Shown: positions 16,194-32,480 of the stretch, piece by piece
Position numbering within the stretch: the first letter of the stretch is position 1
Layout: each line of letters begins with the position of its first letter
DNA from: a virus
Lineage: Duplodnaviria; Heunggongvirae; Uroviricota; Caudoviricetes
Reading direction: 5' to 3' (one strand)
IMG/VR virus record: IMGVR_UViG_2541047697_000003
Length of the DNA: 37,528 bases
Translations under genes and position numbers: made by a program
The notes under the pieces: model-generated
Told to the model about the DNA's origin: nothing
The model's input: only the letters and a program-made list of their open reading frames with translations
The model's database searches: none

Positions 16194-17180
16194 ATGAAAA
16201 ATAAGAACCAGTATCAGGCTTTACTTAGAGGGAAGGTCGAATCGGCGATTGCTCAAGCCAAAAGTGCTGCAGGATTTTCCCACCAGGGTGTTAAGGGAGC
16301 TGTTCTAGAAATATTATTAAGTCAACTATTTCGACCTCTTTTGCCCGCAGATGTTGGCATCGGCACAGGGCAAATCATTGAACAGTATTCAGGAAAGTTA
16401 TCACCTCAAATAGATATTATTATTTACAATAAATCAATACTCCCTCCGATATTAATCGATGGTGCCACAGGGTTATTCCCAATAGAATCAGTTCTATATA
16501 CCATTGAGGTAAAAACCACATTAAGCTCATCGGAACTCAGCTCTGCACACTCAAGTGCAAAAGAACTTAATGAGAAATTCGGTTACTTACCTGGAATAAA
16601 AGATGAATCAGGCAAACTAATCCAACACAAAATAGAAAAACTTCGCTCGGTAATATTTGCTCTAAGTAGCGACTTATCACCAAATGGAATTACTGAAGCC
16701 GAAAGGTATAAAAAAATATACAAAGAAGACTTTCGTTACGTTACAGCAATTTGCGTTGCAGGTCGTGAGTATAGTTATGAAGATCGAGATTGCTGGGTAA
16801 CAATGCGTAATACTCAAGCGTATGATGAAATCCTTGCATTTATTGGAGGCATAACCAATACATACAAAGGTGTTTCAGAAAGTCGTGGGACACCATTGCT
16901 AGGATATTACATTGTTCCAGAGAATGTCGAACTGAGCCTTACAGCTTGTACCACACTCCCGGAATTGCAAGTTAAGTGCACGCAATGCGCTGAAACTAAA
17001 AAAATAATCCCCACCTTTGACAACGATGATGAACTAATACTAAAAAACTACACTCTTTCTGATAACAAGCCTTGTAAATGTGGTGGGGAATTTAAATCAG
17101 AAAAAGGTAATTTCACCATTAAAAATGGTCGACTGAGAGAAATAGAGTACAACGAGCCAGATCGAATTTACAAAGAGTAA
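16194..17180 (+). CDS. AT-rich cargo protein with a PD-(D/E)xK-like motif and a C-terminal Cys4 cluster (function unknown)
   Basis: 328-aa ORF with an ATG start; the only plus-strand gene in the late structural block, in the V-S slot; translation shows ...QIDIIIYNK...YTIEVKTT... and CTQC...CKCGG. Confidence 0.75.
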   Translation: MKNKNQYQALLRGKVESAIAQAKSAAGFSHQGVKGAVLEILLSQLFRPLLPADVGIGTGQIIEQYSGKLSPQIDIIIYNKSILPPILIDGATGLFPIESVLYTIEVKTTLSSSELSSAHSSAKELNEKFGYLPGIKDESGKLIQHKIEKLRSVIFALSSDLSPNGITEAERYKKIYKEDFRYVTAICVAGREYSYEDRDCWVTMRNTQAYDEILAFIGGITNTYKGVSESRGTPLLGYYIVPENVELSLTACTTLPELQVKCTQCAETKKIIPTFDNDDELILKNYTLSDNKPCKCGGEFKSEKGNFTIKNGRLREIEYNEPDRIYKE

Positions 17181-25632: not shown

Positions 25633-26718
25633 CTAACGTTTCAACCAAAGGTCATCTACAGAAAACGAATCGAATTCATTCTCAGATGGAGAATAAATAA
25701 AGCTCACTGTAAAATACGGTCTAACCAAAATCTCTAAAGTCACAACGTCACCATCACCATGAGTAAATGGGAATGCCGAATCTAAATCGCTTTTATTTTC
25801 AATATAATCCAAATAAGGAATATCCACTTCAATAAAAACCCGTCTCAAATTAAAAGAATAGGCAATGTAATATTTATCCGCATCAATTGAAGTGATGCCT
25901 TCAATATAGCCATCCTCGAAATCTTCGATGACATCAACTCTAACATCCAAAACATTCGAAACTCTAGACTCAAAAATATTATTTTCAAGGTATTGACTAA
26001 GCATCATGTGATTAAAACTTGATAAATAATCGATACACTCACCTTCTAGAAACTCCTCGAAATAAGGCTCACTTCTTGCATGATCAAAAGCATGGATACT
26101 CTTATCAATAGATGATGTAACGAAGTCAAATAGCTTCCGATATGGAGTTATTTTTTGTGTTATGCCTAACTCTTCAATATCTCTTAGAAGATCATCATTA
26201 AACGTTGCAGGACCTTTACTGTTGGTAAAAAAGTCTGAGCTATTCTCAGTAATAAATACAAAATCATCATTACCCCCTGATGATTTGATATATTGAAGAA
26301 AAGATAACCAGATCAACGTATCACGGTATCCTTTTTCTTGTTCTGAGAAAGGTTTTATCTTTTCAAGGGCCCTACCAACCACCTTAGCATGTGGAATATC
26401 GTTATAATCTATTAAAATTAAATTATCAACTTCCTTATTTAATATTTCTTTCAAATCATATTGTTCAATACCTAAGTTTTCAATTTTAAAATCTATTGGA
26501 TTCTGATTAAGCTTTTTAATTTTACTAATAATGGAACGCATTTCATTTAATTGATTTTTGAGCTCTCTATTCCTGATATTGTTAGTCTCCTCAATTACTA
26601 AATTTGATAATAACAAGTCGTTACATTCATTATTCAAAAAATGGAAAAGAAGTTTAAAATTAGCATTTTTAGCAAACCAATTATTGTAAAATATATTTGT
26701 ATCCAAAAAAACTTTCAT
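25633..26718 (-). CDS. AT-rich cargo protein with an N-terminal PIN-like motif (function unknown)
   Basis: 361-aa ORF with an ATG start; N-terminus MKVFLDTNIFYNNW resembles the first acidic strand of PIN-fold nucleases; lies between Q and the putative cos. Confidence 0.7.
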   Translation of the reverse strand: MKVFLDTNIFYNNWFAKNANFKLLFHFLNNECNDLLLSNLVIEETNNIRNRELKNQLNEMRSIISKIKKLNQNPIDFKIENLGIEQYDLKEILNKEVDNLILIDYNDIPHAKVVGRALEKIKPFSEQEKGYRDTLIWLSFLQYIKSSGGNDDFVFITENSSDFFTNSKGPATFNDDLLRDIEELGITQKITPYRKLFDFVTSSIDKSIHAFDHARSEPYFEEFLEGECIDYLSSFNHMMLSQYLENNIFESRVSNVLDVRVDVIEDFEDGYIEGITSIDADKYYIAYSFNLRRVFIEVDIPYLDYIENKSDLDSAFPFTHGDGDVVTLEILVRPYFTVSFIYSPSENEFDSFSVDDLWLKR

Positions 26719-26935
26719 CTGTCTTTTCCAGTGATGTAGTTAATAACATAGGTAATTATAAATTGAATTGTAGGCCGGATCCACTGATAGTGGATCCGGT
26801 TTAAAAGATTGCATTTATGGCAATGTCAAGTATAAAAACAACCACAACATAATGATTGTATATCCAAAGGCCGTCAGTAAATCATAGCAATTATCACTTA
26901 CAGGGGATGTGCGATTTTAATCGTTCAGCCGCGCG

Positions 26936-26954
26936 CTCATATCCCCGCCACGCC
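26936..26954 (-). other. putative cos (cohesive-end) site
   Basis: Minus-strand GGCGTGGCGGGGATATGAG followed by GCGCGCGGCTGAACG, resembling the P2/186 cohesive-end sequence as remembered (GGCG-A/T-GGCGGGGAAAGCA...); reads toward Q as in P2. Confidence 0.45.
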
Positions 26955-27240
26955 TGCCCGCTTTATGTAGCGGTTTTCATGCAGGTGCATGATCTACGCA
27001 AAATCCCACCAGTTCTGGCGGGCCTTAGCAAAAACGATCCGCAAACGATCATGCGATCTCATGCGGCATAGTCATGCACTTACGGGGGAACTGAAATCCA
27101 GTAACCGAATGATCGCTTGAAAAACGAAACATACGTACTTACAAAGCACAAAGCCTGCTTTGAGCGAAGCGGACGTTAATAATGTTGCTGACCATCCCTA
27201 GTACTTCTCATAATATAGCCCTATGTTAATCAACAAAATA

Positions 27241-29133
27241 TTAATTTGTCCCATCACTAAAGAATTTGATTGCGTCAGTTAGTACATAGTCAATGAAAAT
27301 TTTTACGTGAAAGACCTGAAAAACGCTATTTTCTGAGTTTTGAATGAAATCTACAGCTATATCTTTTAGGTTGATCAACCAGTTATATTCTTCAATCAGT
27401 CTAGTTCTGGCATCCGCATCAGAATAACGACTCCGTAAGCTAAATGCCAGTTTCCTCATGATAACTGGATCAAGTTTCCTATAGCTTTCAATGAAAACAT
27501 CAGCAGGAACTAAGTGTAAAAAAGGTACGTCATGAAGATTTAACTGTCTATTATTAGAATGACTCAATTCAGATAACAACGATGATTTTCCCCTTTGTAA
27601 CTCATCTCTGAACTGCAATGCAAATTCCGAAATTGATTCATCAAACCGTTTCTTCCTTGCTATTTTAATATGTTCAATAATGAGCTTAAAGTCATCACTA
27701 TCCCTGTCAAGAAAACTTAAACTACGCCATCCCCTTAATTCGTTATAATGCGTTTGCGCATATTCCTTATGTACATCTTCAGCTCTCAGTCTATTATAAT
27801 AATTATTTATATTCTGTTTTGTCTCATTTATGAGATCATGAACATCATCTGTTGTTAGACCTTCTTTCGCCATTTCCAGCAAAATACTCGCTGTCATCAG
27901 GAGTTCACCTAAGGTAGTGATCTTACCTGAAAATAGGTTATCCTTAGCAATAGCGTACTGCTCATAAAGCATAGTTTCATTTAGTTCTCTATAGTTCCAC
28001 AAACACCTCCATGCTGGTGAATCGCTGCTTCTAAAAAAACGCGTAACATCCAACTGAGCAAGAAGATCACCCGTTACCTTTCCATCACAGATTAGTTCTC
28101 TCCAAGACGCGCCATCCAGTAACTTCTCGGTTAATACAGGAGACGAATATTTCTCGACAATCATGTCATACTTACTTTTGACGCGTTCTTTACCCAAAAA
28201 CATACCATAATTAACATTGCCGATTGAATTGAAATCCTCGTAGCTAAGATTCCCTCCCCGGTACTCCATCGAAAAAATTAACAATTGATGAAAAAACACC
28301 CTTATAAATTCATCGTTACTTAAATATTTATCTCCCAAAAGGGAAATAATTCGTTGTACATCGAGAAAGAACTGCCTCAAGTGTCTTAGATTATTATAAT
28401 TCGCTGACACATAGAGGTCCTCTATTGTCTGCATATCTTCTTTAAATATATTAGCAACATGCAAACTACTAATTACGTTCAAGAAAATCTTACAAGCACT
28501 ATGTAAATCTGACGTTACTTCAAATGTTTTACCTACTAGCTTTTCTTTTGTTCTCATGTATTCATTGCGATATTTCTCATCATCATTATTTATTCGCTTT
28601 TCTCTATTGATTATTTCATCTTCATTGGCAACCAAGATCGCTTTGTATCCGTTTACTTCCACAAAGTGATTTATATATCCAAATAAGATTGGTAAATCTA
28701 CACCAGCTCTCTCGACATCATCAAAGACCAGCACAAAACCATCTGGTTTTCTAGTAAAGTCGCTAAGATTAATGGTGGGAACATTGCTATTGATATCTAC
28801 GTCAGATTTATTATCGCCATTAAGATCGATCTTGAAAGTAGCCTTAAGCGTATTTTTTAGTACATTTGCACCAAAGATAAGGGCTTTGTTTGATAGGACA
28901 GGATGCAATTGACGATAGAACTCATCTTCAATCTGCTCAATAGAGTTGACGCCATACAAGCTCACTTTTAGAAATTTGAACTCTGAATGTTTCTGCTTAT
29001 ATTCTTCAAGAACTCGTTCAATGAACCAAGTTTTACCTGATCCCCAAGCACCTTTAAGCATAATGGCGTATTGAGGTTCAGTTTTAAGGCTAAGGTAATA
29101 TTCTATATAGTCTTTGATGTACGTATTGTGCAT
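27241..29133 (-). CDS. AT-rich cargo P-loop NTPase with a KAP-type Walker A (function unknown)
   Basis: 630 aa from the ATG at 29133 (track start is TTG at 29184); Walker A LKGAWGSGKTWF and Walker B-like FVLVFDDVER; long helical C-terminal region. Confidence 0.7.
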   Translation of the reverse strand: MHNTYIKDYIEYYLSLKTEPQYAIMLKGAWGSGKTWFIERVLEEYKQKHSEFKFLKVSLYGVNSIEQIEDEFYRQLHPVLSNKALIFGANVLKNTLKATFKIDLNGDNKSDVDINSNVPTINLSDFTRKPDGFVLVFDDVERAGVDLPILFGYINHFVEVNGYKAILVANEDEIINREKRINNDDEKYRNEYMRTKEKLVGKTFEVTSDLHSACKIFLNVISSLHVANIFKEDMQTIEDLYVSANYNNLRHLRQFFLDVQRIISLLGDKYLSNDEFIRVFFHQLLIFSMEYRGGNLSYEDFNSIGNVNYGMFLGKERVKSKYDMIVEKYSSPVLTEKLLDGASWRELICDGKVTGDLLAQLDVTRFFRSSDSPAWRCLWNYRELNETMLYEQYAIAKDNLFSGKITTLGELLMTASILLEMAKEGLTTDDVHDLINETKQNINNYYNRLRAEDVHKEYAQTHYNELRGWRSLSFLDRDSDDFKLIIEHIKIARKKRFDESISEFALQFRDELQRGKSSLLSELSHSNNRQLNLHDVPFLHLVPADVFIESYRKLDPVIMRKLAFSLRSRYSDADARTRLIEEYNWLINLKDIAVDFIQNSENSVFQVFHVKIFIDYVLTDAIKFFSDGTN

Positions 29134-29454
29134 TTTTAGTCCATTTTTATAAAATACATAAACATAGATGGTAAGTAGAGCCAAAGGCCAACTATGGAAA
29201 ATTCAATCGGTAGTGTACATTGTAAGGTTATTATTGGTAAATATTATAGGAATACCCATAATCTTACAAAATTCAGATTATCCGTTGCAAATTAGTCTGC
29301 TATTCGTTAATTGACGAAAGATAGCAGAAGAAATGTTCGCTTCTGGCACAAAGCGGACGATCACTTATAAAAATGACCGCCCACCTTACGCCTTATTTCA
29401 CTCATTGCCCAAACTAGCCCCCATCAGAGTGAATCCTCCTGGGGGCAACATTTC

Positions 29455-29688
29455 TTAATGCTGCCAGCTGTCGTCTTCCCACACCTTCTGCATAATTTTC
29501 ATCACTTGTTTTCTTTCTTCGTCCAGTTGCAGTCCGGTAAGTTCCACACCGTGAGAGCTACCTTTGCGGATACGAATTACCGTTTTGGGATACAGGGGGC
29601 GCAGATTGCGGTAAAGCTCGGATTCAAGGGCGTCTAGGATAGACTGGCTAATCTTCTGCTCTTTATCGATCATTATTTCAATGCGCAT
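29455..29688 (-). CDS. DinI-like protein (186 Tum C-terminal-like)
   Basis: 77 aa from the ATG at 29688 with GAGGTGA upstream; MRIEIMIDKEQ...LESELYRNL...IRIRKGSSHGVEL...VWEDDSWQ follows the DinI pattern. Confidence 0.7.
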   Translation of the reverse strand: MRIEIMIDKEQKISQSILDALESELYRNLRPLYPKTVIRIRKGSSHGVELTGLQLDEERKQVMKIMQKVWEDDSWQH

Positions 29689-29698
29689 AAAAGTCACC

Positions 29699-29887
29699 TC
29701 AACTGATGACATCCATTGAGCGGTTGTATTCGTGGGTTCTGATTTTTGCCATGAGTTCATCAGTCAATTCAGAAACCCACTGCAAAGCCAGCCCCTTCTC
29801 TTCATCACTACACTCACTAGCCGCTACAAGCTTAAGAAAAAAATCAATGCGCTGGAGCTTCAAAGACTCCAAAAAATAGTCCTGCAT
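29699..29887 (-). CDS. small SOS-operon protein (possible Tum N-terminal part)
   Basis: 62-aa ORF with an ATG start and strong AGGAGG, directly downstream of the LexA box; different frame from the DinI-like ORF. Confidence 0.45.
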   Translation of the reverse strand: MQDYFLESLKLQRIDFFLKLVAASECSDEEKGLALQWVSELTDELMAKIRTHEYNRSMDVIS

Positions 29888-29928
29888 CTTTCCTCCTATA
29901 ACACCAAAGAAATATTGTATACATAACC

Positions 29929-29947
29929 ACTGTTTATATTTACAGTA
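29929..29947 (-). promoter_or_regulatory. LexA (SOS) box at the promoter of the small-ORF / DinI-like operon
   Basis: aCTGTttatatttACAGta, a perfect CTGT-N8-ACAG with an AT-rich spacer, about 45 bp upstream of the 62-aa ORF start. Confidence 0.7.
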
Positions 29948-30039: not shown

Positions 30040-30396
30040 TTAATACAGGTTCCGCCACTTATCATCTTCCTGCAAACGCTGGTTCCGATAGAAGATACGC
30101 AGGCCTGCTCCTGACGGAATACTGCCGCCGCGAAGGAGTAAATCGACCTCTTTCTCGCTACCATCAAATCCTCTGGACTTCAGTTCATAGGCGAGCTGCT
30201 GTCGCTGATGGTCTGTAATTCGCTGTTTGTAGTCTTTACGCCGTTTCGGTTTCACCAGGCGTAACCTTGCTGCCAGTTCCCGGCGCTCTTTTTTGCTCAT
30301 ACTGTGCAGGTAATCGTGCAACTCCTTGTCATCCATGCGGGTGATATCCGTTCTGGTATCCCCATCAGCTGATTTGTCTTTCCCTTGTTGGTTCAA
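30040..30396 (-). CDS. hypothetical basic protein downstream of A
   Basis: 118-aa ORF from a TTG (internal ATGs at 30336 and 30300); no clear RBS; highly charged. Confidence 0.35.
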
Positions 30397-32480
30397 ATTT
30401 TCAGCAAGGGGACAGTTATTGCCACGAGTCCAAGGGGACAGTTATTGCCACGAGTCCAAGGGGCGCAAGCGCCCTGGTCGGCTGCCGCCTCCTGAACGTC
30501 AACGGCCTTACGAACCATTTTCCACTTCACTGCATGAGTGCAGATTTTGCCCTCTGCAATGGGTGACCAGATGCCATAAATACGAATGCCGTGATCGCCA
30601 TAGGCGGTCGGCTCTTCGTTGATTTCATAAGCGGTTCTGATGAGGTGATATTTACGGGGAACCAGTACGCCGCCCTGCTTCATGATGTAGGTGGCAAAAC
30701 AACCAGCATCAGCTGCAGCCAGAATGGCATCAAGGCGCGGGTTATCCAGTACCGGCGCACCTGCTTTTTTGTCACCCTGTTGCCTTGCCACCTGACCAGC
30801 CAGCAATCGCAGTTCACGGTAAGCCTGACGCCCCGGAATGCCAAAGAAGCGGAATTGCTGAACACGATGCAGAGACGCCCAGGCATTAACGTATTCAGCG
30901 TTATCACGCAGAGATTTACCCGTTTCCTTGCTGATCTCGCCAGCCAGACCACGCCCGTCAATGTTCTTACTGATGTATTTCGCGATGTAGCTTGTCGGCG
31001 TTCCTTTGCGCGGGTTTATCAGCTCAGATTTAAAGCGTGGACCAGTGTTATTACCCAGTTCCTCGCGGTCTTCACGGATGGCAAACTTACGCAACAATGC
31101 AGTAATGGCGCGGCGGTCTTTTTTGCGCATGAAACACAACAGGTGCCAGTGAACTGTACCGTCATGATGCGGCTCAGCCACCCGCACGCCATACCAGCGC
31201 AACCCGGCTTTGTGCATCGCCTTACGAAATGCAGCAAACATGCCGACCAGATAATCGCTGCTTTGTCTTACCGTCGCATTTGTCCAGGTTGGGTTTGGTC
31301 TGCCGTTATTGAGCGTGGAATGGAAACGTGACGGACAGGTAATGGTGTAGAAAACGGCGCAGTCACCGCGCATTTCCGCGATAAGCTCCAGACCTTTAAC
31401 ACAGGCCATCATCTCATTGCGGCGGTGCGCCGGGTTGCTGCTGCTGGCGTTTACCACGTCTTCCATATCCAGCGTGTCGCCCTCTTCGTTCACCAGTTCA
31501 TGAGAACGGAAAAACTCCAGTGACTTGCGGCGCTGCTCACGTTTATGCATCACGGCTTCATAGCTGACATAGGGAGATGCTTTTTTGCTGACCAGGCAGA
31601 CAGCACGCAACTGCTCTTCCCGCCATTCGCAACGCATTTTCCATAATTTCCGGTACCACCAGTCGGCGCACAACATACGCGCCAGCGAACCCGGAATGAG
31701 TTCATAGGGCACGGGTTTACGGCGGTTTCTTTTCCGACGGAGTTGCTCAAACGCAGGCGGGATGACATCCAGACGCAGGGTTTCCGCTGCCACCTTTTCC
31801 CATGTCTTGCGGATTTCTTCTGGCTTAACGTCATCGGTGGCATACAAATCACCACAAGCTGCATCAAGGCACATGCTCATATGCGCAGCGACAAGGGTAG
31901 ACAGGCGTTTCACCTGATCCTGACTCATTTCAGGCAGAATCAGCAGGCCGTCCAGCCCTACATGGCTTGCCATAAAACGAAAAGATGCAGATAGCTGGCT
32001 GTCGCGTACATGCTCCAGTCGTTCCAGACATGGCTTAATCGTCTCACGTAAATAGCGGGAATAAGCCTTTGGCCTGCCCAGGCTGTTAAAGTATTCAATA
32101 CGTTGCATCAGCGGCTTGCTGATATGGGAGGGCTGGGCGCTGACGTCTGCCAGAATGACCATGTCCGGGTTAAAACGCTGCTGCTCATGCGCCAACTTTG
32201 CCCGGCTAATGAGCTTATCCTGCTCTATTTCGCGTTGGACAGGATCACGGGATTCATTAAAGAAATAACGCTCCCAGACCTGATCACTCAGTGCCTCGCG
32301 GCGCAGTTGTTCCTGCTCGTTATCGGCAGCGTACAGAGTGATCAGGTTTGAAAGCGCAGAAACCGGCGCAACTTCCGCCGGGTCCAGATAAGGGTTAATG
32401 GCCTTTTTCGGGCTGTTCCATGAGAACGATGCGGCAGCCTCGTTAAAGCCGCAGCAGTTGCTCATATCGGCATGGCTCAT
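30393..32480 (-). CDS. A: replication initiation endonuclease gpA-like (rolling-circle, HUH-Y family)
   Basis: 695-aa ORF; HWHLL (HUH-like) and SYIAKYISK tyrosine motifs; ATG overlaps the dam stop. Confidence 0.9.
30405..30474. repeat. tandem direct repeat (2 x 26 bp plus a partial third copy) followed by a 14-bp palindrome, inside the 3' end of gene A
   Basis: caaggggacagttattgccacgagtc at 30405-30430 and 30431-30456, then caagggg; then gggcgc-aa-gcgccc at 30461-30474. Confidence 0.8.

Follow-up and report, generated by a model that had tools for sequence, protein, structure and literature searches.

The window analysed here, a stretch of 37,528 nt, contains on its minus strand an AT-rich gene for a KAP-type NTPase of 630 amino acids. 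The gene has a GC content of 35%, as compared to 50% for the whole window, and it is placed between the cos region and a DinI-like operon controlled by a LexA box in a P2/186-like prophage, in agreement with an earlier sequence-only reading of the locus. The features are as follows.

26930..27080, no strand: cos region of the prophage (P2/186-like), conserved, one boundary of the slot
27147..27240, minus strand: cassette-specific 3' untranslated segment
27241..29133, minus strand: KAP NTPase coding sequence in the list of open reading frames, 630 aa, stop codon included
27244..28338, minus strand (aa 266-630): C-terminal all-alpha domain, the variable half, presumed sensor/output
28339..29133, minus strand (aa 1-265): N-terminal NTPase module and helical lid
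28708..28737, minus strand (aa 133-142): Walker B strand and DDxER, FVLVFDDVER in the translation
28771..28896, minus strand (aa 80-121): Lys/Gly-rich insert in the interval between Walker A and Walker B, conserved, not hydrophobic
29029..29052, minus strand (aa 28-35): Walker A, GAWGSGKT in the translation
29134..29335, minus strand: cassette-specific upstream region, presumed own promoter
29455..29945, minus strand: backbone at the opposite boundary of the slot, with a DinI-like gene (Pfam DinI) and an ORF of 62 aa under a LexA-box promoter

Comparison with other prophages shows where the backbone ends and the cassette begins. P2-like phages, and about 1,098 records of E. coli, have a match of about 150 bp to the cos region, and positions 26930-26982 align with what is annotated in phage Cartapus as the 'putative cos site'. 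At the other end, the order of the 62-aa ORF and the DinI flank genes is identical in all related prophages, and a perfect CTGT-N8-ACAG LexA box (29930-29945) overlaps a -10-like TATACT. In prophages that have different cargo in this slot, homology on the 3' side stops at 27134-27146, the upstream region 29134..29335 is missing, and homology restarts at approximately 29336-29346. In E. coli prophages this upstream region accompanies the KAP gene. It contains TTGCAA-N18-TAAGAT and a TATAAT hexamer, and since a consensus scan of the upstream sequence on the gene's strand gave no promoter passing the criteria, its role as a promoter is presumed. The nearest terminator-like hairpins on the minus strand, at 27005-27056, lie in the backbone.

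Within the cargo slot next to cos, the KAP cassette forms an AT-rich 'moron' that is complete in itself, and it was found in this slot in all six E. coli or Escherichia contexts that were inspected. The gpA-gpQ cos-proximal hotspot is the home of P2 old and tin as well as of validated defences (PMC9122126), so the earlier suggestion that the gene sits in the old/tin hotspot next to cos was correct, and KAP_NTPase is among the listed cargo of the P2 hotspot in Rousset et al. 2022. The KAP gene shares with old and tin the slot and the character of an AT-rich accessory gene. Old and tin exclude other phages, but Old, an ABC-ATPase-TOPRIM nuclease, and Tin are both unrelated to the KAP protein, which matched no Old or Tin model in the PADLOC scan. 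The locus is otherwise a textbook case of modular cargo swapping, on both sides of cos, in P2-like prophages.

The assignment to the KAP-type P-loop NTPases was borne out by the profile searches. The match to Pfam KAP_NTPase (PF07693) scored 74 bits (E 1.6e-20), well above the curated gathering threshold of 20 bits, and aa 4-263 aligned with profile positions 3-290 of 293, which is the entire domain. In PADLOC, three PDC-S49 models matched end to end (E 9.7e-157, 5.5e-149 and 2.2e-87), the best of them covering aa 2-623 against profile positions 5-614 of 624, and the scan gave only a marginal PDC-S20 match besides. The protein also matched phrog_4740 of PHROGs (E 7e-61) and is 100% identical to 'NTPase KAP [Escherichia sp. 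E3659]', while the NCBIfam scan returned no family match. No STAND, NACHT or NB-ARC profile above threshold, with a repeat-type sensor and an N-terminal effector, was found in it. PDC-S49 is the single-gene 'phage defence candidate' 49 (Payne et al. 10.1101/2024.01.29.577857); it has the same length, about 620-630 aa, the same single-gene organisation and the same candidate status, and nothing sets the KAP protein apart from its other members. A literature search found no paper naming PDC-S49, but the family is already on record in PADLOC, in PHROGs and in Rousset Table S5. The gene is thus a real but fairly ordinary find, a stand-alone ATPase of a listed candidate-defence family.

The Walker A and the hhhhDD Walker B pointed out from the translation are both invariant in an alignment of 100 homologues, at G28, W30, G31, G33 and K34 in the former and F137, D138, D139, E141 and R142 in the latter. 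They fit the KAP flavour, GxWGxGKT/S together with hhhhDDxER/DR. The conservation is concentrated to the N-terminus, and the C-terminus is variable. As the sequence-only reading had anticipated from the long helical region, the C-terminal 365 residues are predicted with confidence to adopt an all-alpha fold, inside which there is a Y570-x11-E582 motif. No solved structure resembling this domain was found, and the family profile, when run against PDB chains, gave P-loop noise only (E ~0.5). No effector fold could be recognised, and the protein lacks any nuclease, TIR, protease or pore domain.

The insert at aa 80-121 has a pLDDT below 50 in the predicted model, but its sequence is about 40% identical between distant homologues, K83, K93, K101, D103 and P119 are nearly invariant, and an amphipathic helix is found at aa 83-94. 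In the classical description, reportedly that of Aravind et al. in 2004, KAP NTPases have two or four TM helices that accompany the NTPase domain or interrupt it. The protein studied here has no TM segment, the Kyte-Doolittle maximum over 19 residues being 1.3, and carries the polar insert instead. TM helices are not universal in the KAP family, since the founding bacterial member PifA, which excludes T7 from cells with the F plasmid, is also devoid of them.

An alternative explanation is that the protein acts at the membrane by abortive infection in the manner of PifA or Tmn, the insert being a peripheral anchor in place of the TM hairpin, so that the envelope is perturbed, with leakage of ions or nucleotides, after a phage protein has been sensed. 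PifA depolarises the membrane and leaks nucleotides in spite of having no TM helices, and Tmn, a related membrane NTPase, causes plasmolysis (PMC13001434). The insert is found at the location in the NTPase domain that has been described for the TM helices of KAP/YobI proteins, and it is conserved without a confident fold. However, a hydrophobic segment is absent from the protein, and its likeness to PifA is limited. Both are single proteins encoded by mobile elements, both are above the Pfam KAP_NTPase threshold and both have an identical GAWGSGKT, but hhalign (85%) finds homology in only about 50 columns, those around Walker A, and the C-terminal regions are unrelated. PifA is 741 aa long, is co-transcribed with its repressor PifC, and matches the PifA, QatA and PDC-S20 models, not PDC-S49. 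EF_KAP, compared by description, the KAP-effector fusions related to it, and Tmn are single-gene systems with a KAP-type NTPase followed by a long domain-less region, like the KAP protein, but two TM helices are present in EF_KAP, at its N-terminus, and in the YobI/KAP-like Tmn, inside the NTPase domain. EF_KAP defends in a manner that requires its Walker B motif, and it is reported not to act by abortive infection (PMC12632615). Taken together, a membrane-acting mechanism seems unlikely.

A closer known relative was found in Reve, a single-gene KAP P-loop defence from a cos-adjacent hotspot of P4 satellites (10.64898/2026.02.27.708500). Construct pFD425, which we take to be Reve from the plasmid numbering in the supplement, gave plaque ratios of 2.5e-6 to 0.02 with all seven Drexlerviridae tested (10.64898/2026.02.27.708500). 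In a profile-profile comparison with hhalign, the KAP family and the Reve family aligned over 539 columns (99.2%, E 3e-19), HMM positions 29-635 against 55-620, with the C-terminal helical domain included and an identity of about 15%. The sole PADLOC match of Reve is PDC-S49. The two proteins share GxWGxGKT, DDxER, a sensor-1-like Asn, EK, NxR and the C-terminal Y-x11-E, and both are soluble, stand-alone proteins of about 590-630 aa, encoded by AT-rich genes directly beside cos in an element of the P2/P4 type. What is new here is that the PDC-S49 family is, by these profile alignments, a full-length remote homologue of Reve.

The KAP family is a sister family rather than an orthologue of Reve, since neither sequence search gave a protein of the other's length and BLASTP between the two was significant in the Walker A region only (aa 24-72, 35% identity). 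A search with Reve gave 48 proteins of 439-628 aa and 26-99% identity, none of them 630 aa, and the reverse search gave no protein of 586 aa among its 120 best matches. Furthermore, Reve is carried by a satellite and the KAP gene by a helper-type prophage, and the Reve family is restricted to Enterobacterales, whereas PDC-S49 is spread over many phyla. The measured phenotype is that of Reve, and because the homology is remote the function of the KAP gene could differ.

We infer that the KAP gene is a single-protein anti-phage defence cassette of the KAP P-loop type, a member of PDC-S49 and a distant full-length relative of Reve, and we would put the probability of this at roughly two in three. 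The reading is based on the full-length PDC-S49 match, the lack of a conserved neighbour and the homology to Reve, together with the hotspot position, the precedent of PifA and EF_KAP, and the invariant catalytic motifs. A set of about 100,000 species-representative genomes yielded relatives in 430, from Proteobacteria to Cyanobacteria, Bacteroidota and candidate-phyla (CPR) bacteria, and no full-length homologue was found in the sequenced phage isolates searched. Around about 75 distant loci from many phyla, no neighbour family is conserved; the commonest of those among the 148 immediate neighbours, integrase, occurs 4 times. Several of the distant homologues have type I R-M genes beside them, which is consistent with the way the PDC families were predicted, from genes embedded in BREX, DISARM and type I R-M systems (10.1101/2024.01.29.577857). 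Many distant homologues lie amid housekeeping genes with no defence gene nearby. The gene is under purifying selection, with a dN/dS of 0.23-0.36, and no gene-wide positive selection was seen on the C-terminal half (omega 0.23-0.38).

It is also conceivable that the gene is not anti-phage at all, but is selfish or addiction cargo, or an NTPase serving a mobile element as a TnsC/MuB/IstB-like selector of target DNA, a partition protein or a replication factor. We find this improbable. No transposase, ParB-like protein or replication partner is conserved beside the homologues, and the similarity in fold is limited to the generic AAA+/STAND-like core, for which BrxC, RdrA and NLRs score about equally well. 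The relatives recognised at the PADLOC level are defence candidates only, and the remote homologue Reve is reported to be strongly protective. The gene was found in only 46 of 5,426 complete E. coli genomes, as against 1,094 with a match to the neighbouring cos region, and it is dispensable for P2-like prophages, as most of them lack it.

The sequence-only reading had left it open whether the gene works alone or is one half of a system with the PIN_12 gene at 25633-26718, in which the KAP NTPase would be the sensor and PIN_12 the nuclease effector. The two genes are adjacent and co-oriented, with the cos region alone between them, the KAP gene is present on most contigs with the exact PIN_12 protein (at least four loci), the arrangement 'KAP_NTPase + PIN_12' is on record in Rousset Table S5A, and a PIN nuclease would fill the role of the missing effector. 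However, at two loci the identical PIN_12 protein occurs with CdiI_2 and RNase_A_bac, or with DUF8087, in place of KAP, and beside KAP genes PIN_12 is replaced by RES, by DprA and a hypothetical gene, by a small hypothetical gene or by one of 223 aa. The swapping of partners largely refutes a two-gene system. A DNA search of the 5,426 complete E. coli genomes, including the 46 with the KAP gene, gave no match to the PIN gene, and when the 148 genes directly beside distant homologues were sorted by Pfam family, no PIN-domain family was in the top 25. Cutting at cos would also leave the two genes at opposite ends of the linear packaged genome, and Reve acts as a single gene. A KAP/PIN_12 system is therefore very improbable, and judging from the gene neighbourhoods the KAP gene appears to act alone. 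An HNH_2 nuclease was considered as a hidden partner as well, but it flanks only the Serratia and Lysobacter homologues, with none at the other loci or in the window, and as the two HNH_2 proteins have only the HNH domain in common we regard these neighbours as coincidence.

If the gene is a single-protein defence, the KAP protein is most likely a sensor-switch, soluble and driven by NTP, that acts on a narrow range of phages. It would be expressed in the lysogen, probably from the upstream region of the cassette itself, and read-through from the SOS-controlled DinI operon may contribute. The conservation pattern, and the analogy to PifA and STAND sensors, suggests that the divergent C-terminal domain detects a component of the infecting phage. 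Detection would be coupled to binding and hydrolysis of NTP by the conserved N-terminal module, through K34 of Walker A, D138, D139, E141 and R142 of Walker B, the sensor-1-like N170 and N248 and R250 of the lid, and the AAA+/STAND-like fold suggests that a conformational change or oligomerisation follows. The active state would stop the multiplication of what is probably a narrow set of phages, as for Reve. Most likely, the protein would use NTP to remodel or sequester a phage complex, possibly on DNA, or would bring about an abortive outcome like that of PifA.

Since no effector domain is visible, an unconventional immune output may reasonably be sought in the KAP family. In AAA+ proteins of the initiator type (ORC, DnaA, TnsC and MuB, for example) the segment between Walker A and Walker B holds a DNA-contacting motif. 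It is a speculative and improbable idea that PDC-S49 and Reve belong to a single, widespread superfamily of soluble, 'effector-less' KAP immune proteins, in which the Lys-rich insert replaces the TM hairpin and the protein assembles in an NTP-dependent manner on phage DNA or on a replication or packaging complex, with one branch beside cos in helper phages and one in satellites. Should this be true, the output would be a new one in immunity, neither nuclease, NADase nor pore. If the gene defends, as we think probable, it would represent a second and much wider branch among the few single-protein defences of the KAP type (PifA, EF_KAP and Reve), and PDC-S49 would move from an entry in a candidate list to a system with a validated relative. 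The link to Reve also points to Drexlerviridae and to a short list of common invariant residues.

The slot at 27072-29454 holds a single long ORF on the minus strand, 27241..29184, and its frame stays open for 653 codons, as compared to a mean of 88 and a maximum of 179 in 500 shuffles of the segment. The start codon is the ATG at 29133, the same start as in the RefSeq annotation of the E. coli orthologues, giving a protein of 630 aa with Walker A (GAWGSGKT) at aa 28-35 and Walker B (FVLVFDDVER) at aa 133-142. The GC content of this KAP gene is 35.3%, that of the window 50.1%. The window is a P2/186-like prophage with the capsid, terminase and portal genes to one side, and a DinI-like gene, preceded by a 62-aa ORF, adjoins the slot. 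The ORF scan, translation, GC content and database matches agree throughout with the sequence-only reading, which had described an AT-rich gene with these Walker motifs between cos and SOS-regulated DinI. The features around the gene are:

26930-27080, about 150 bp: conserved cos region, with matches in about 1,098 E. coli records and to the cos site annotated in phage Cartapus
29925-29950, minus strand: near-consensus LexA box, TACTGTAAATATAAACAGTG, with a perfect CTGT-N8-ACAG, overlapping the -10 region of the promoter for the 62-aa ORF and the DinI-like gene
25633-26718, minus strand: PIN_12 gene, 361 aa, 31% GC (Pfam E 2.3e-27), in the cos-to-portal slot

Homology to prophages with other cargo stops at about 27134-27146 and 29336-29346, which implies a mobile unit of about 2.2 kb, made up of the coding sequence and its flanks (about 200 bp on the upstream and 95 bp on the downstream side). 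The alleles of the gene (89-98% DNA identity) are all intact and their dN/dS is 0.23-0.36, alike in the N- and C-terminal halves, so the gene is kept by selection. The upstream piece contains TTGCAA-N18-TAAGAT and one TATAAT hexamer, and a consensus promoter scan of the upstream region called no promoter; we infer that the gene probably has its own promoter. Alternatively, transcription might come by read-through out of the DinI operon. The gene lies downstream of the LexA-box promoter in the same orientation, and SOS induction might thereby boost its expression. In two prophages with the same backbone and PIN_12 allele, the slot is occupied by a small DUF8087 gene (L098:5050-5385) or by a CdiI_2 immunity gene together with a toxin of the bacterial RNase A type (L096:4307-5434), and cargo at this position is thus rapidly replaced.

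The family to which the protein belongs is already catalogued. The protein scores 74 bits against Pfam KAP_NTPase (cut-off 20, aa 4-263), confirming the proposed KAP identity, and three PADLOC models of PDC-S49 align with it over their full length, at best with E 9.7e-157. The PHROGs assignment is phrog_4740, of unannotated function, no NCBIfam family was found for it, and RefSeq names the product 'P-loop NTPase fold protein'; an identical protein is on record from Escherichia sp. E3659. The PDC families are 145 candidates predicted by 'guilt-by-embedding' in BREX, DISARM and type I R-M loci in a 2024 preprint (10.1101/2024.01.29.577857), and our literature search found no mention of PDC-S49 by name.

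An alignment of 100 homologues, with identities down to 26%, showed that G28, W30, G31, G33 and K34 of Walker A, F137, D138, D139, E141 and R142 of Walker B, and the lid residues N248 and R250 are invariant, and N170 of the ANE motif nearly so. In the C-terminal half E290, W375, F547, R569 and E582 are invariant. Among distant homologues, identity is 40-57% over the NTPase module and drops to 13-26% in the C-terminal half, the pattern of a conserved motor with a diversifying recognition or output region. The AlphaFold2 model made from the same alignment is confident (pLDDT 84.8, pTM 0.70) and has three parts; its C-terminal fold, which has no solved relative, is new from the present analysis. 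The insert between Walker A and Walker B, aa 80-121, was modelled with low confidence. It is Lys- and Gly-rich, about 40% identical across distant members, and contains no hydrophobic segment (maximum Kyte-Doolittle score 1.3). KAP and YobI proteins are described as having TM helices within the NTPase domain, and PifA is said to be soluble (PMC13001434). The present protein is likewise a soluble KAP variant.

The sequence-only reading had offered a single-gene system or one half of a system together with the PIN-like gene across cos, and only the first of these, a KAP-type single-gene NTPase and defence candidate, held. The gene was found in 46 of 5,426 complete E. coli genomes, in all 46 on the chromosome, and in every context inspected it lay between DinI and cos. 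On the other side of cos, the KAP prophages carry a RES NAD+ phosphorylase, DprA with a hypothetical gene, a small hypothetical gene, a 223-aa hypothetical gene or PIN_12, and the identical PIN_12 protein is elsewhere found beside the KAP gene, the CdiI_2 and RNase_A_bac pair, or DUF8087. In Table S5A of Rousset et al., KAP_NTPase is listed with and without PIN_12, and PIN_12 also without KAP (PMC9122126). The PIN_12 gene had no DNA match among the 5,426 genomes and its protein no PADLOC match; it is independent cargo of the neighbouring slot, a defence-like candidate that appears to recombine freely with the cargo across cos.

Relatives of the KAP protein occur in 430 of 100,044 species-representative genomes, from taxa including Proteobacteria, Cyanobacteria, Bacteroidota, Chlorobi, Acidobacteria, Myxococcota and CPR bacteria. 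Among 80 loci from these genomes, no neighbouring ORF family within 4 kb recurred in more than 7, and the top Pfam family of the 148 immediate neighbours was phage integrase (n=4). A handful of loci are flanked by type I R-M components and other PADLOC families, which agrees with how PDC-S49 was originally flagged. An HNH_2 nuclease was considered as partner and rejected, since the pairing is not seen elsewhere: HNH_2 genes, about 295 aa in length, directly adjoin only the homologues of Serratia liquefaciens, at a lambdoid prophage end (L009:8794-9693), and Lysobacter sp. (L011:12264-13148). Similarity between the two nucleases is confined to the HNH domain, and they are probably independent neighbours in a defence island. 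Taken together, the swapped partners and the lack of a recurring neighbour show that the KAP gene is a stand-alone module, and this strict single-gene modularity is new evidence.

The gpA-gpQ region was defined by Rousset et al. (2022, PMC9122126) as a defence hotspot, where old and tin are found along with newly validated systems. Their locus table has at least 69 KAP_NTPase entries, and KAP_NTPase is absent from the table of systems that they tested (PMC9122126). PifA of plasmid F has a KAP domain as well, with the very same Walker A sequence, but aligns with the family over only about 50 columns and is placed in a separate PADLOC group, PifA/QatA/PDC-S20. EF_KAP and related proteins, a Walker-B-dependent defence of Enterococcus (PMC12632615), carry TM helices, whereas the KAP protein has no hydrophobic insert. 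The most informative relative is Reve, a single-gene defence of the P4 satellite hotspot, translated from the preprint supplement (586 aa; 10.64898/2026.02.27.708500). Its sole PADLOC match is PDC-S49 (E 2.5e-11). Compared as single sequences, Reve and the KAP protein are significantly similar only in the NTPase module; a profile of 25 Reve relatives matched the PDC-S49 profile with 99.2% probability (E 3e-19) over 539 columns spanning both proteins. The motifs that do not vary in either family (KAP/Reve) are GxWGxGKT, DDxER, N170/N163, E197-K198/E176-K177, N248-x-R250/N220-x-R222 and the C-terminal Y570-x11-E582/Y523-x11-E535. This remote but full-length homology implies a sister family of the same architecture and not an orthologue, the Reve branch beside cos in a satellite and the KAP branch beside cos in a helper-type prophage. 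The plasmid pFD425, taken as Reve by the supplement's plasmid numbering, gave plaque ratios of 2.5e-6 to 0.02 on 7/7 Drexlerviridae tested, with little effect on the remaining phages listed for it (10.64898/2026.02.27.708500). The full-length link of PDC-S49 to Reve, a validated system, is new from the present analysis.

It was also possible to observe other features of the prophage. Gene A (30040-32480, minus strand), encoding the replication endonuclease, contains a perfect 26-bp tandem duplication (GGGGACAGTTATTGCCACGAGTCCAA twice) at 30412-30463, which shifts the frame and leaves ORFs of 695 aa and 118 aa. In near-identical prophages such as L095, which over 10.7 kb differs only by the duplication and one substitution, gene A is intact (804 aa). 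The duplication may be an assembly artefact, or the prophage may be defective in replication. Between the tail and baseplate genes there is a third insert of low GC content:

16194-17180, plus strand (opposite): low-GC insert, about 40% GC, encoding a 328-aa DUF6602 protein (Pfam E 1e-21)

This protein matches PADLOC PD_DExK (E 6.6e-32) and models of the NucC nuclease (E 7e-14), and may be a defence nuclease acting on its own, carried as cargo in a slot of the late operon. At its left end the window carries host genes, one of them ybjM-like (288-665) and the other coding for a YbjL-type Asp-Al_Ex/TrkA_C transporter (935-2620). The ogr-side end of the related L098 prophage abuts the same transporter gene, which locates the attachment site in that part of the chromosome.

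What is established for the KAP gene is its identity, modularity, location and selection, and the steps of a mechanism are all proposals. Structurally, the core comes closest to DNA-loading AAA+ proteins, and in initiator AAA+ proteins a DNA-contacting motif is found in the segment between Walker A and Walker B. This resemblance, together with the Lys-rich insert in this segment, tentatively favours an effector step in which a phage complex would be remodelled or sequestered, possibly on DNA, in an NTP-dependent manner. An abortive outcome at the membrane, as with PifA, would be the second preference, and recruitment of a host factor the third. Most likely the protein works as a single-protein, NTP-driven sensor-switch, where the variable C-terminal helical domain would recognise a phage component and the conserved NTPase would turn this recognition into a conformational or oligomeric change, which would then block the multiplication of a narrow range of phages.
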